Made by a program: the position numbers and the translations under genes. Of a stretch of 58,776 nt of DNA, positions 6,859 to 46,330 are shown in pieces. The notes beneath the pieces were generated by a model. That model made no database searches, was not told where the DNA came from, and saw only the letters and a list, made by a program, of their open reading frames with translations. Origin of the DNA: Patescibacteria group bacterium (GTDB lineage: Bacteria; Patescibacteriota; Minisyncoccia; Phycocordibacterales; DATDSR01); contig JBBTXQ010000018.1 in NCBI GenBank assembly GCA_038062165.1, positions 1 through 58,776 on the forward strand, given 5' to 3'. The number at the start of each line of letters is the position of its first letter. Position 1 is the first letter of the stretch.

Positions 6859-6936
6859 TCCCGTTAGAAGCTTCGGGATTCACGCCACCATGCTACATAT
6901 TATCAACGCCAAATATAGTGTTAGCTTCTAACGGGA
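6859..6936 (+). repeat. Start-codon hairpin element, copy 1 (13-bp stem TCCCGTTAGAAGC / GCTTCTAACGGGA)
   Basis: Perfect 13-bp stem. The 3' arm ends on the A of the pepA ATG. ATGAG flanks both sides (6854-6858 and 6936-6940). Confidence 0.6.
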
Positions 6937-8294
6937 TGAGAATAATTAACAAAGACAAGTTAGGGAAAGGCCTGCCTGCCGGCAGGCAGGAGTACAAAAA
7001 GGCTGATTTTAAGGACGCAAATAGCTTGCGTAAATTTGTTTTGGCTGTACGCAAGGCTGTGGCTGATGCCAAGAAAGACAAGATGAAAAAAGTGGCAGTT
7101 ATCCTGAAAGAGATTCACAAGTTCGGGATTGGCGAGAGAGAATTGGGTGAGATAATTGCTCGCGAGGTACTGATTGCTGATTATGAATTTACTAAATACT
7201 TGAGCAAGCCAAAAGAGGGCTGGAGCTTTATTTCTGGATTTGCTCTTATCGGTAAAGTTAGTAAGGAGTTTAAGGTGGGAATTGAGAGGGGCAAAATAAT
7301 TGCGGGAGAAGTTAACATGACTCGCGAGCTGGCTAATACTCCGGGTGGCGAGATGGTTCCCAAGACTCTTGCCTTAGCCGCTCGAGAAGCAGTTAAAGAT
7401 TTGCCCAACACAAAAATAACAGTACTTGGCAAAAAGGAACTTGAGAAGCTGGGGATGGGAGCAGTGCTCGGTGTAGCCAAGGGCTCGCCAGAAGAGCCGC
7501 AATTTATTGTTGTGGAGTATCGCCCCCTAGCCCCCTCTTATGATAAGAGGGGGAACAAAGGGGGAGATATCGTTCTGGTTGGCAAAGGCGTGACCTTCGA
7601 TACTGGGGGACTCAATCTCAAGCCTACTGATGGCATTAACGACATGCACTTGGATATGTCCGGTGGTGCGGCTGTGATACACGCTGTTGCACTTGCTGCT
7701 AAACTTGGTGTGAAGAAAAATATAGTGGCGCTTGTGCCCGCGGTTGAGAACATGCCCGGAGGTTACTCATATAGACCCGGCGATATTCTTAAGTCGTTAT
7801 CTGGCAAAACTATTGAGATCAAAAATACTGATGCTGAAGGCAGAGTAATTCTCGCCGACGCTCTCACCTACGCCAAGAAGTTTAACCCAAGATTAGTTAT
7901 TGATGTCGCAACTCTAACTGGCGCGGCTTGTGTCGCCCTTGGCGAACGCGCCTCGGCTATCTTCACGCGTGATCAAGAGCTTGAAAAGTTGACGAGGGAA
8001 CTGGGAGAGAAGTCAGGCGATTATGTTTGGCCGATGCCCATGTGGGAAGAGTATGAGAGTGAAGTGAAGGGAACATTCGGCGATGTAGCTAATCTTGGCA
8101 AGAAGGGCAGGATGGGCGGAGCAATCTCGGGCGCAATGTTCTTACTGCAATTCACCAAAGATTACCCCAAAAGTACAAAGTGGATGCACATAGACATGGC
8201 CCCCACAATGACAGCTACAGACGACGAGTTTCTAGCCAAAGGAGCCAAAGGCAGTCCCGTCAAGCTCCTGCTTGCCTTGATTGAGAGTTACTGA
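6936..8294 (+). CDS. pepA: Leucyl aminopeptidase (M17 family)
   Basis: VLVGKGVTFDTGGLNLKP and NTDAEGRVILADAL M17 signatures. I prefer the ATG at 6936 over the GTG at 6918 because the same cttctaacgggATG junction precedes rplV and rplN. Confidence 0.9.
   Translation: MRIINKDKLGKGLPAGRQEYKKADFKDANSLRKFVLAVRKAVADAKKDKMKKVAVILKEIHKFGIGERELGEIIAREVLIADYEFTKYLSKPKEGWSFISGFALIGKVSKEFKVGIERGKIIAGEVNMTRELANTPGGEMVPKTLALAAREAVKDLPNTKITVLGKKELEKLGMGAVLGVAKGSPEEPQFIVVEYRPLAPSYDKRGNKGGDIVLVGKGVTFDTGGLNLKPTDGINDMHLDMSGGAAVIHAVALAAKLGVKKNIVALVPAVENMPGGYSYRPGDILKSLSGKTIEIKNTDAEGRVILADALTYAKKFNPRLVIDVATLTGAACVALGERASAIFTRDQELEKLTRELGEKSGDYVWPMPMWEEYESEVKGTFGDVANLGKKGRMGGAISGAMFLLQFTKDYPKSTKWMHIDMAPTMTATDDEFLAKGAKGSPVKLLLALIESY
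7518..7569. repeat. 52-nt nested palindromic element inserted in frame in pepA
   Basis: tatcgccccct-ag-CCCCCTCTTA-tg-ATAAGAGGGGGA-acaa-agggggagata. All four blocks (44 nt) are identical to recG 45293-45342. Confidence 0.7.
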
Positions 8295-40746: not shown

Positions 40747-40819
40747 GGGCGTGTAGCTCAGTTGGTAGAGCGTTCGTCTTATACACGGAGGGTTCTTGGT
40801 TCGAGTCCAAGCGGGTGGA
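40747..40819 (+). pseudogene. tRNA-Ile(UAU)-like gene with a non-complementary acceptor stem
   Basis: The D-arm, anticodon arm (TTCGT-CTTATAC-ACGGA) and T-arm (CTTGG-TTCGAGT-CCAAG) all fold. However, the 5' GGGCGTG faces the 3' CGGGTGG, giving 3 mismatches. Its first 25 nt are identical to the tRNA at 43315. Confidence 0.5.
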
Positions 40820-43726: not shown

Positions 43727-46330
43727 CTATTCGAAATGGTGGTTCTGTGAGATGAGACGCTCGGCAAGGAGTGGGTGATTTGCAAGCGCGGGATCAGATT
43801 CGAGGATCGCGCGGGCTTCGGTTCTTGCCGCTTCTACCATTTTCAGATTTAGCAATGCTTCCATGCCCACGTCAGAGATGCCAGACTGTTTGATGCCAAC
43901 AAGTGAACCCGGGCCGCGCAGTTTGAGATCTTCTTCGGCCAGATCAAATCCTGATTTTGCTTTTTCGATAGCCTTCAAACGTGCCGATGTGGTACCTGCC
44001 CCGAGCGTAGTCGAGGGGAAGAGATAGCAATGTGCCTGATAACTTGAGCGCAACACCCGCCCTCTTAATTGGTGCAACTGGGCTAAGCCGAATCTCTCTG
44101 CCCCTTCTATGATAATTATTGTGGCGTTGGGTACGTTCACGCCCACTTCGATCACACTTGTCGCCACCAGAATGTTTATTTCGTTGTTGGCAAATTCGCT
44201 CATGATCTCATCTTTTTCTTTAGCCGACATTTTTCCATGTAGCGAAGCTACAACCAATTCTGGAAAAATGTTTAGGCCCAATTTCTCTGTCTCGCTCATG
44301 ACGTCTTTAGTTTCGAGCGCAAGTTCTTTTTCTGGATCGGGCTCGCTTATTCTGGGGCAGATTACGTATGCTTGTCGGCCAGATTTTATTTCGCGCCTGA
44401 TATGCTCGTACACATTTGCTCTCTCTTTTGGTTGAACTATTTTAGTGATAATTGGTTTGCGGCCGGGTGGCGACTCATCAAGTAGAGTCAAATCCAGATC
44501 TCCATAAATTGTGAAGGCGAGTGTGCGCGGGATAGGCGTAGCCGTCATAGATAAGAGATGCGGAACAAACGCGGAACTATGCGGAATTGACGCGGACGGG
44601 GAACGGGCTTCGTCGTAAACCAAACGTTTTATATCTAATTGTGTGGGGCCGAAATTGACTATGAGGGCCAGTTTATATTGTGATCCTTTAAGGTATTTCC
44701 ATGTTTGAGACGCTACTGTATCACCTAAAAATGGGAGAGCCTTGAGCTCAACTATTACTGAATCCTCGACAAGAAAATCAGGTTGATACAACCCAATCTT
44801 CTTCTCCTTATAGTAAATATCAATTCTTTTTTCTCTAGCAAACTGAAGACCGATCCGTCGGAATTCTTCCTCTAGTGCTCGTTGATAGACAACCTCCGGG
44901 TGACCACCTCCAAGTGTTTTGCGAACCTCGAATGCCGCACCACGTATTTTGTACGTAAGTTGTTCGTACAACAACTCCGTCTTTTCTTTGTTTTGTCTCC
45001 CTTCCGCATTGTTCAGCGTTTGGTCCGCGTTTCTTCCGCGAGCAACGAGCAAGGCTCGTTGCTCTACTCCGAAGCGGTGCTGTTCGTCGATGATTGATAG
45101 GGCCAACTTTTTGAACTTAACAGATTCCTGAATGAGGGCGTGTGTGCCAATCACGATGCTCATCGAGCCGTCAGCAATCCATTTGAGTAATTGTGTGCGC
45201 GATATGTGAGTGCCTGCTCCGAGCGTAATCGAGGGGTGGTTAATTTTTGAGGGAAACTTGCGACATTCACTGCCCGTGAGCAGGCCTATCTGTATCGCCC
45301 CCTCGATCCCCCTCTTACCATAAGAGGGGGAAGGGGGAGATAGGAGTGAAATGAAGCTTTCGAAATGCTGCTTGGCCAGGATCTCTGTGGGGGCCATATA
45401 GGCGACCTGCAAATTATTTTGAATTACAGCATGTGCCGCCGCCGCGGCAACATAAGTTTTGCCCGAACCGACATCGCCTTCAAGTAAGCGCATCATGGGG
45501 TGCGCTCTACCCATGTCATTTAAGATAATTTCAAGGGCCCAGTTCTGTGCTTGGGTGGGCCTGAAGGGGACTTCTAACTTGTCCTTGCTCGATATCTTGT
45601 ATGCCCCAGCCGTTTCGTATTCGTTGCGCGCCTTCTGCCTTGCAATCTGAATGAAGAAAATTTCTTGAAACGAGAAGCGCTTCCTGGCCGCCCGCGCGTC
45701 ACTCTCTCGCTTGGGGCTATGTATATATATGAGTGAGTGAGCAAGCGACGGTAATTTGTACTTCGTCAGAATATCTGTAGGGATCGGATCCCTATGTCTA
45801 TGTTGCTCTACAATCCCAGATTTGAGAACTTTTTGAATCGCATAAGTGAGCCAGAGGCTTGAGATGCCACGGGATTCAGGGTAGACGGGAACTAAGTTAC
45901 CGGGTAACCCCCGGTTACCCGGTAACTGGGAACTGAATAGAGGACCAGATAAATCAGTATCACTGGCAAGTTCTATTGCGGGATTAGTGAAACTTCGTGA
46001 GCCTTTGTACTCTTTAGATTTTCCAGATAGCCTAACAAGAGCGCCTTCAGCGAACTTTTTGGCCATATAAGCCTGACTAAACCAAATTGCTTTAACTTTC
46101 TTGCCCGAGATATCCTCAAGCGTCATCTCGGCAATTGCGACGCGCTTATGCCAACCCTTGCGTGTGCCTTGCGATACTACCTTGGCTATCACGCTCTCCT
46201 CGTGCGATGCGTAGCGAGCAGGGAAGTGGTGCAACAAATCATGAACAGTCAAGAGCCCCAGCTTCTTAAGCCCCCGCCTCTGCGCGTCTTTGAGTCGGAA
46301 GTGATTTTCTAGTTTATCGTTTGGAGTCAA
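43727..46330 (-). CDS. recG: ATP-dependent DNA helicase RecG carrying in-frame insertions; TTG start
   Basis: GDVGSGKT, DEQHRFGV, MTATPIPRTLA and QLHQLRGRV helicase motifs. At 867 aa it looks longer than typical RecG because of the inserted segments. Confidence 0.9.
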   Translation of the reverse strand: MTPNDKLENHFRLKDAQRRGLKKLGLLTVHDLLHHFPARYASHEESVIAKVVSQGTRKGWHKRVAIAEMTLEDISGKKVKAIWFSQAYMAKKFAEGALVRLSGKSKEYKGSRSFTNPAIELASDTDLSGPLFSSQLPGNRGLPGNLVPVYPESRGISSLWLTYAIQKVLKSGIVEQHRHRDPIPTDILTKYKLPSLAHSLIYIHSPKRESDARAARKRFSFQEIFFIQIARQKARNEYETAGAYKISSKDKLEVPFRPTQAQNWALEIILNDMGRAHPMMRLLEGDVGSGKTYVAAAAAHAVIQNNLQVAYMAPTEILAKQHFESFISLLSPPSPSYGKRGIEGAIQIGLLTGSECRKFPSKINHPSITLGAGTHISRTQLLKWIADGSMSIVIGTHALIQESVKFKKLALSIIDEQHRFGVEQRALLVARGRNADQTLNNAEGRQNKEKTELLYEQLTYKIRGAAFEVRKTLGGGHPEVVYQRALEEEFRRIGLQFAREKRIDIYYKEKKIGLYQPDFLVEDSVIVELKALPFLGDTVASQTWKYLKGSQYKLALIVNFGPTQLDIKRLVYDEARSPSASIPHSSAFVPHLLSMTATPIPRTLAFTIYGDLDLTLLDESPPGRKPIITKIVQPKERANVYEHIRREIKSGRQAYVICPRISEPDPEKELALETKDVMSETEKLGLNIFPELVVASLHGKMSAKEKDEIMSEFANNEINILVATSVIEVGVNVPNATIIIIEGAERFGLAQLHQLRGRVLRSSYQAHCYLFPSTTLGAGTTSARLKAIEKAKSGFDLAEEDLKLRGPGSLVGIKQSGISDVGMEALLNLKMVEAARTEARAILESDPALANHPLLAERLISQNHHFE
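44558..45040 (-). mobile_element. In-frame GxxExxY-family (PD-(D/E)xK-like) ORF insertion between RecG helicase motifs II and III, bounded by inverted GCGGAA-type repeats
   Basis: Insert reads LLYEQLTYKIRGAAFEVRKTLGGGHPEVVYQRALEEEF...QPDFLVEDSVIVELKA...LALIVNFG. Flanks 44558-44601 and 44999-45040 are inverted repeats (core gcggaaSaaacgcggaMc, 16/18). Confidence 0.65.
45293..45342. repeat. 50-nt nested palindromic element inserted in frame in recG (antisense to the gene)
   Basis: tatcgccccct-cgat-CCCCCTCTTA-cc-ATAAGAGGGGGA-agggggagata has the same four blocks as pepA 7518-7569. It encodes LSPPSPSYGKRGIEGA in RecG. Confidence 0.7.

Follow-up and report, generated by a model that had tools for sequence, protein, structure and literature searches.

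The recG gene and its inserted nuclease domain

The recG gene on contig JBBTXQ010000018.1 of a tiny-genome Patescibacteria group bacterium (assembly GCA_038062165.1) encodes a DNA-repair helicase whose motifs II and III are separated by a small nuclease-like domain inserted in frame. The contig was analyzed over positions 1 to 58,776, and this whole stretch of 58,776 nt is referred to as the window. Features of the locus are listed in Table 1. The wedge domain, the superfamily 2 helicase motifs I-VI and the C-terminal domain of RecG are all present in order. Pfam places RecG_wedge first, followed by DEAD (residues 282-425), PDDEXK_3 (457-569), Helicase_C (643-762) and RecG_dom3_C. The motifs GSGKT, DEQH, TATPIPRT and QLHQLRGRV are invariant across the RecG alignments A1 and A3. 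The NCBIfam RecG models align to the product in two separate stretches, and the RecG equivalog score of 677.9 falls just under the cut-off of 718 because the insert splits the match.

Alignment with orthologues sets the borders of the insert. The host sequence runs up to DEQHRFGVEQRALLVARG (ending LLVARG), the insert spans RNADQ to HSSAF, and the host resumes with VPHLLSMTATPIPRT. The host DNA at the edges reads CGCGGA on one side and GTTCCGCAT on the other. A RecG protein translated through the insert would contain the candidate junction peptides NADQTLNNAEGR and SPSASIPHSSAFVPHLLSMTATPIPR.

The core of the insert matches PF13366 (PDDEXK_3) with an E-value of 4.5e-30 (104.9 bits against a cut-off of 22) and NCBIfam TIGR04256 (GxxExxY) with an E-value of 1.6e-32 (112.3 bits against a cut-off of 35, profile positions 1-116 of 116). 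The GxxExxY signature GHPEVVY and the PD-(D/E)xK signature PDFLVEDSVIVELK are both intact in the window copy. In alignment A2, no variation is seen at G44, E49, P87, E98 and K100, and D88 is kept by at least 90% of sequences. We infer that the nuclease may be catalytically active. An AlphaFold2 model of the full RecG, based on an alignment of 84 sequences, has a mean predicted local distance difference test score (pLDDT) of 82, with an intact and confidently predicted RecG core. In this model, residues 452-573 of the insert fold into an alpha/beta domain of their own (pLDDT 91-97, with 95-98 over the nuclease core), and the isolated insert modelled alone adopts the same fold. The arm-encoded segments at residues 433-451 and 574-585 have a pLDDT below 50.

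The nearest solved folds retrieved by Foldseek are lambda exonuclease, Cas4 SSO0001 and archaeal Hjc (probability ~1, TM-score 0.35-0.44). Hjc ST1444 is among the Foldseek matches, and tRNA-splicing endonucleases are among the distant ones at E-values of 0.1 to 0.25. A sequence search of the PDB with the insert returned T7 endonuclease I alone, and the E-value of 0.13 is too weak to uphold a junction-resolvase relationship. By its predicted fold, the insert is a generic PD-(D/E)xK nuclease, and no solved structure is closely related to it. A survey of PD-(D/E)xK enzymes enters PDDEXK_3 as 'Unknown' (PMC3424549).

An earlier note on this DNA, made from the sequence alone, had placed a complete GxxExxY-type, nuclease-like protein at 44558-45040, in frame and separating motifs II and III, lacking intein termini and flanked by inverted repeats of GCGGAA units that could pair in the mRNA. 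The span proved accurate to a few codons, since the alignment gives 44567-45034. The position agrees with the Pfam layout and the orthologue alignment, and the full-length matches to PF13366 and TIGR04256 establish the nuclease as complete. The repeats were recovered as arms at 44553-44586 and 45002-45035, and their pairing in the mRNA holds as a prediction of the minimum-energy fold. The start and end residues confirm what was said about intein termini. The first residue of the insert is Arg (in RNAD) and its last residues are SSAF, after which the host continues with Val; neither an initial Cys, Ser or Thr nor a terminal His-Asn is present. In other RecG proteins, the 108 inserts are usually succeeded by V, I, S or A and then PH. 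The Pfam and NCBIfam matches included no Hint or intein family. An intein is ruled out by the missing Hint domain and by the missing nucleophile and His-Asn termini.

Table 1. Positions of the insert, its parts and related hairpins. Coordinates are those of the window, or of the named metagenome locus where one is given.
Feature	Position	Strand	Description
recG host ORF	43727..46330	minus	867 aa; no stop within the insert
Whole insert	44567..45034	minus	aa 433-588; 468 nt, 156 aa; defined against insert-less orthologues
GxxExxY / PDDEXK_3 nuclease core	44606..44974	minus	aa 453-575; GHPEVVY and PDF..VELK intact; confident predicted alpha/beta domain
5' arm	44975..45034	minus	encodes RNADQTLNNAEGRQNKEKTE; GCGGA / GCTGA / GCGGA at 11 and 10 nt; predicted disordered linker
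3' arm	44567..44605	minus	encodes RSPSASIPHSSAF; TCCGC units at 10 or 11 nt, 21-nt tandem repeat; predicted disordered linker
Repeat-finder arm	45002..45035		pairs with 44553-44586
Repeat-finder arm	44553..44586		outer 14 nt extend into host codons VPHLL
Perfect 11-bp hairpin	45040..45064		GAGCAACGAGC-AAG-GCTCGTTGCTC; encodes EQRALLVAR; adjoins the 5' arm
ORF-less hairpin	L021 483-593		
ORF-less hairpin	L027 3344-3502		
ORF-less hairpin	L079 3179-3340		
ORF-less hairpin	L091 3179-3292		114 nt, -54 kcal/mol

Distribution among genes and lineages

The insert is widespread in RecG of related bacteria. A whole-protein search found PF13366 at the identical position in 108 of the 120 best RecG relatives, and all 108 insert-bearing proteins come from Patescibacteria (Paceibacteria-type) assemblies. 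The window itself stems from a metagenome assembly, which might suggest a chimera or a sequencing artefact. Yet the reading frame is continuous and the same architecture recurs in over 100 independent assemblies drawn from several sources, which rules out mis-assembly and leaves an artefact with a negligible probability. NCBI and JGI records list several full-length insert-bearing RecG helicases as 'GxxExxY protein', an annotation error due to the insert.

A scan of metagenomes with an alignment of inserts yielded 80 loci, for which cores were located by tblastn and extended from stop to stop. At 64 of the 80 loci the core lies in frame within a long host ORF, and 16 cores are free-standing between unrelated ORFs. 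The in-frame hosts are RecG (29), LepA-type GTPases (21), transketolase-C-type proteins (5), GatB (4), glycosyltransferases (2), LeuRS (2) and ValRS (1). Pfam also detects the GatB, transketolase, LepA and glycosyltransferase hosts, and the LeuRS and ValRS hosts were assigned by HMGH/KMSKS-type signatures. No out-of-frame intragenic copy was found among the 80 loci, and none of the 16 free-standing cores has the halves of a host gene on both sides. All 21 LepA copies occupy a single site directly 5' of (V/I)LNLIDTPGH. Sites in other hosts likewise adjoin conserved motifs, with TTRP(D/E)T following the insert in LeuRS and ValRS and GTKVEVKNLNSF following it in GatB. Sites beside highly conserved motifs are of the kind used by homing elements.

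Other searches covered different ranges. A search with the insert only found close relatives within LepA-type GTPases and riboflavin kinase as well, and in a single-peptide scan of genome contigs most matches were RecGs without the insert and one was an unrelated free GxxExxY protein. A HMMER search retrieved 21,995 cluster representatives (50% identity) at E-values of at most 1e-3. The best 150 representatives include 149 that could be assigned to 46 free proteins, 25 internal inserts, 32 tandem doubles and 46 terminal fusions, many of the latter probably cut by contig ends. On 63 long representatives, 42 Pfam partner families were found. The tandem doubles are about 260-275 aa long and carry two GxxExxY domains (e.g., P0269, P0279 and P0281).

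Conservation at one site in RecG could point to a domesticated domain. An ancestral Paceibacteria-type RecG would have gained a nuclease that now serves the helicase, for example in the cleavage of branched DNA, with the repeats remaining as historical debris. The shared position of the insert in 108 of the 120 best RecG relatives fits this explanation, as do the conserved catalytic residues, an insert identity that tracks host identity and the faint likeness to junction-resolving nucleases (T7 endonuclease I at an E-value of 0.13, and Hjc ST1444). We consider domestication unlikely nonetheless. The same cassette with its arms resides in LepA, LeuRS, ValRS, GatB, glycosyltransferases and transketolase-type proteins, for which a DNA nuclease has no obvious use. 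The complementarity of the arms and their 10/11-nt phasing are maintained, not decayed, and 12 close RecG relatives have no insert, with the window copy being separately gained. The earlier note had held that its proposal would fail if the insert were widespread and conserved in RecG as an ordinary domain without flanking repeats. The insert is indeed widespread and conserved in RecG across many lineages, but the flanking repeats are kept and the cassette is also found in unrelated proteins. The cassette is therefore not an ordinary RecG domain. A search for the same unit in other genes, suggested in the same note, found it in many unrelated hosts and as free-standing copies.

The history of the window copy differs from that of most insert-bearing relatives. 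With the insert removed, the window RecG shares 78% identity with P0118 and P0120, 76% with P0119 and 65-72% with nine more proteins, and all of these 12 closest RecGs are without an insert. Identity to any insert-bearing RecG is at most 59%. The window RecG and the insert-less group also have a 13-aa deletion in the wedge domain in common, and the gene neighbourhood of the P0118 locus (L094) is shared with the window. In a neighbour-joining tree, the window RecG is nested five or six nodes deep within the 12-member insert-less clade. Even so, both the core of the window copy and its arms (NADQTLNNAE ... SASIPHSSAFVPH) belong to the type of other RecG inserts, for which the arm peptides read NA(D/E)QT.NA(D/E) ... 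SAFVPHSSAS. The nesting of the host in an insert-less clade argues for a separate gain of the cassette by the window lineage. A separate gain at the identical site, as homing-type elements achieve, would be more parsimonious than at least five losses. In neighbour-joining trees, the insert thus combines one precise site with a presence and absence that conflict with the host phylogeny, as is characteristic of homing elements.

The inverted-repeat arms

The window arms are 34 nt long and 85% complementary, with a 16-nt core at 94%. A 20-mer of the arm, allowing up to three mismatches, occurs at two places only in the window, with 0 expected from 100 shuffles. No further cassette copy or arm-like peptide was found in the window. 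The 3' side holds four TCCGC units, and copies of its tandem repeat with a 21-nt period lie at 44558-44575 and 44579-44596. Across the cassette family, the arms form arrays of pentamers. A 75-nt 5' arm carries on average 3.7 GCNGA units and a 3' arm 3.3 TCNGC units, and motifs of the opposite sense are rare (0.25 per arm). Neighbouring units are 10 or 11 nt apart in about 75% of cases. Two units correspond to 21 nt, equal to 7 codons and to about two turns of B-DNA. The spacing hence keeps the reading frame and places all units on one face of the DNA. By analogy, such a phased layout would be typical of protein-binding sites at transposon ends.

The same DNA would also be read as protein. N-terminal x-N-A-D/E repeats and C-terminal P-R-x-S-A or S-A-S repeats end free-standing copies as well, and both types of terminal peptide arise when a single inverted DNA repeat (AACGCGGA and TCCGCGTT) is translated. 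Among 79 loci with 75-nt arms, the mean duplex energy is -48.6 kcal/mol for cognate arms, -39.8 kcal/mol for non-cognate arms and -28.4 kcal/mol for shuffled arms, which indicates that the inverted repeat is family-wide and partly locus-specific. Five of the six free-standing copies tested, including L101, have inverted repeats of lineage-specific sequence bracketing the ORF. The neighbouring genes of L101 include LpxB, so its source is probably a bacterium outside the Candidate Phyla Radiation (CPR).

The pairing arms could be taken as evidence that the insert is removed or bypassed at the RNA level, as the earlier note had proposed as one of two alternatives. The arms would pair in the pre-mRNA and the insert would be excised and the ends religated, in the manner of an rRNA intervening sequence or a bulge-helix-bulge intron and perhaps by the encoded PD-(D/E)xK enzyme, or the ribosome would hop across. 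The window arms do pair in the minimum-energy RNA structure (z = -3.4), cognate arm duplexes are much stronger than shuffled ones, and tRNA-splicing endonucleases are among the distant fold matches (E-values of 0.1 to 0.25). Several observations speak against such a mechanism, which we judge very improbable. Each of the 64 intragenic copies keeps an open reading frame in phase with its host, and no split host gene was found on the two sides of a free-standing copy, neither of which excision would need. The insert is also under protein-level constraint within the host frame. An RNA helix would tolerate G:U pairs, yet mismatches in 79 aligned arm pairs on the sense strand show 124 G:U against 173 A:C (binomial p = 0.005), with no excess of G:U. 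Three LepA copies (L018, L033 and L034, the latter two with identical flanks) have kept the 5' arm and lost the 3' arm, and they are still in frame. The inverted repeat is thus dispensable for the retention of the insert. No Rfam family matches either. Within the gathering cut-offs, a scan of the whole window recovered tmRNA and tRNAs only, and a scan of 44300-45300 at E-values of at most 1 found nothing, which rules out a group I or group II intron or a known structured RNA at the insert. The RNA-level alternative of the earlier note is left unsupported by the missing G:U excess, the one-armed LepA copies and the missing Rfam match. The excess of A:C over G:U is the opposite of what a sense-RNA helix would produce, and candidate causes are coding constraint, mutation bias or an antisense transcript.

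Hairpins without an ORF are found beside full cassettes. These in-frame hairpins consist of GCNGA/TCNGC units (-38 to -62 kcal/mol) and lie in ORFs that also hold a full cassette (Table 1). By analogy with transposable elements, full cassettes and ORF-less hairpins would follow the pattern of autonomous and non-autonomous copies.

Palindromes also occupy the insertion site where no cassette is present. Strong in-frame hairpins were found at the cassette site in all five checked insert-less RecGs with a loop of 30-35 aa (L094, L096, L107, L108 and L109). The stems measure 9 bp in P0118, 18 bp (nested) in P0119, 21 bp in P0120, 10 bp in P0122 and 15 bp in P0125, and a compensatory A>G / T>C pair distinguishes P0122 from P0120. 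The sequences of these hairpins are unrelated or nested, and they may be footprints, targets or independent mini-elements. Among these resident hairpins, P0118 and P0119 alone have a CAGCGG unit in common with the arms. Some insertion sequences target repetitive extragenic palindromic (REP) hairpins. The arms could by the same logic be foreign to the element, with the nuclease ORF entering the loop of palindromes already resident in RecG and in other loops. The hairpins at the exact site in all five checked proteins (stems of 9 to 21 bp) are consistent with this possibility, and so is the overlap of the outer 14 nt of the window 3' arm with the host codons VPHLL. We still see little probability in a resident origin of the arms. 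GCNGA/TCNGC arrays flank copies in unrelated genes as well as free-standing copies, the type of arm follows the cassette lineage, and the CAGCGG unit is confined to the two resident hairpins named above.

A putative in-frame mobile cassette

We find it reasonably likely that the insert is one copy of a mobile, unspliced and in-frame selfish DNA cassette, which would be translated as an extra domain and spread in a homing-like manner. The cassette would consist of a GxxExxY nuclease gene bracketed by two inverted pentamer-array arms. In the window, it would occupy a surface loop between RecG motifs II and III in sense orientation and in phase, and would never be removed. The mRNA would be read straight through to produce a single 867-aa protein. 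The nuclease is proposed to fold as a separate domain with the translated arms serving as two hydrophilic disordered linkers, and RecG might stay functional for this reason. Of the two alternatives in the earlier note, the one in which RecG tolerates an extra domain is favored by the intact RecG core and independent domain in the AlphaFold model, and by the open, in-frame state of 64 of 64 intragenic copies. The earlier note does not contain the picture of a mobile element spread across the family, the ORF-less hairpin derivatives or the separate acquisition in the window lineage. If the element were lost imprecisely, an essential gene would be harmed, which could explain its persistence. The arms would act in DNA as the ends of the element, probably by offering phased binding sites to the nuclease or a partner and perhaps by forming a cruciform, rather than as a helix in the mRNA. 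Inheritance would be mostly vertical, with occasional copying into alleles whose equivalent site is empty and a rarer jump to a new gene. ORF-less hairpin derivatives would behave as non-autonomous relatives. We infer the translation through the insert, the role of the arms in DNA and the homing mechanism from sequence comparisons.

Several points weigh against a mobile cassette. Translation, nuclease activity and mobility are deduced wholly from comparative sequence, and the trees are neighbour-joining trees from short alignments. Among RecGs, the identity of inserts to the window copy (49-63%) tracks that of the hosts (52-58%), as expected from prolonged vertical inheritance and perhaps from a domesticated domain. 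A close donor for the window copy was not found, the best core identity being ~65% among the sequences searched, so the regain is old or the donor unsampled. The flanks are near-invariant in all RecGs, which makes a comparison for co-conversion uninformative. A nuclease of 120 aa cannot by itself account for integration into new genes. The unrelated palindromes at the site in insert-less relatives are unexplained by the cassette model alone.

Known selfish elements share parts of the proposed organization. Homing endonucleases borne by inteins are likewise in-frame nuclease inserts in conserved motifs of essential proteins, with a patchy distribution and recurrent use of an identical site. In contrast to inteins, the cassette has no splicing domain and apparently stays in the mature protein, and inteins are not known to have terminal repeat arrays. 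Rickettsia palindromic elements (RPEs) were reportedly described by Ogata et al. in 2000 as palindromic selfish DNA residing in frame in coding genes. The cassette resembles RPEs in that in-frame palindromes would be translated as an extra surface peptide, and the ORF-less hairpins L021, L027, L079 and L091 would be the direct analogue. Palindromic DNA lies in frame in several unrelated genes here too, and its location in surface loops is a prediction (arms with a pLDDT below 50 and flanking domains intact). Set against RPEs by their description, which carry no gene, the cassette encodes a 123-aa nuclease core, and both the host phylum and the sequence differ. REPs are extragenic, and REP-associated tyrosine transposases (RAYTs) are HUH/Y1 transposases. 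The REP/RAYT (REPIN) system also combines a nuclease-type gene between inverted palindromic repeats with ORF-less hairpin copies, but the cassette enzyme is PD-(D/E)xK instead of HUH/Y1 and cassette copies lie in frame within coding sequence.

I-Ssp6803I is an intron-encoded PD-(D/E)xK homing endonuclease and exemplifies how a small nuclease of this fold can drive a site-specific selfish element. No sequence relationship or close structural relationship to the cassette was found (best PDB folds with a TM-score of at most 0.44). Intervening sequences in rRNA and insertions in rRNA genes of CPR bacteria are flanked by a long-range stem, sometimes carry a small selfish ORF and are common in the same bacteria. 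They are located in rRNA and removed from the transcript, whereas the host of the cassette is an mRNA with no sign of removal. A study of CPR rRNA gene insertions reports LAGLIDADG and GIY-YIG ORFs, with no mention of PDDEXK, inverted repeats or palindromes (PMC11270868).

The cassette departs from inteins, RPEs and REP/RAYT systems in a defining feature of each. No description of the cassette was found in the open-access literature, an absence that is not proof. The cassette is apparently undescribed and has a fair chance of meriting a category of its own. More tentatively, it might represent a new class of mobile element, in which a homing-type nuclease resides in essential genes without RNA or protein splicing, has ends phased at 10.5 bp that encode linkers, forms an autonomous/non-autonomous family with the ORF-less hairpins and remodels core proteins of Patescibacteria. 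If true, this would fill a missing category of selfish nuclease genes whose insertion is neutralized by translatability and not by splicing. It would also explain the extra length of RecG, LepA, aminoacyl-tRNA synthetases and GatB of CPR/Patescibacteria compared to orthologues, as well as RecG helicases being annotated as 'GxxExxY protein'. The large GxxExxY family, which has no assigned function, would gain a testable role. Cassette sites could serve as natural permissive positions for domain insertion in well-studied enzymes, and the GCNGA/TCNGC array provides a defined DNA motif, and putative binding site, for binding work.

Smaller palindromes are frequent in the window. About 23 distinct perfect hairpins with a stem of at least 9 bp were found, several of them within ORFs (56 raw matches against 3.9 in shuffled sequence). 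In the hairpin at 45040-45064, the left half consists of the invariant Q-R codons of RecG and the right half is their inverted copy. The perfect palindrome CCCCCTCTTA-NNN-TAAGAGGGGG is in frame in two unrelated genes. The copy at 45307-45331 in recG encodes SPSYGKRGI in a loop that is missing from 18 other aligned RecGs and has a pLDDT below 50. The copy at 7531-7553 lies in the ORF 6918..8294, which encodes a putative leucyl-aminopeptidase-like protein, and is translated as APSYDKRG directly 5' of VGKGVTFDTGG. These two copies constitute a second family of in-frame mini-palindromes. A perfect 15-bp hairpin in recG (AGTTACCGGGTAACC-CCC-GGTTACCCGGTAACT, 45895-45927) encodes QLPGNRGLPGNL in a variable loop with a pLDDT below 50, and P0118 contains a similar peptide, PGNRGLLGNL. 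Elsewhere in the window, positions 40752-40813 have a partial Rfam tRNA match (46.9 bits, model positions 6-65 of 71) that is not called by ARAGORN and may be a fragment or a pseudogene.

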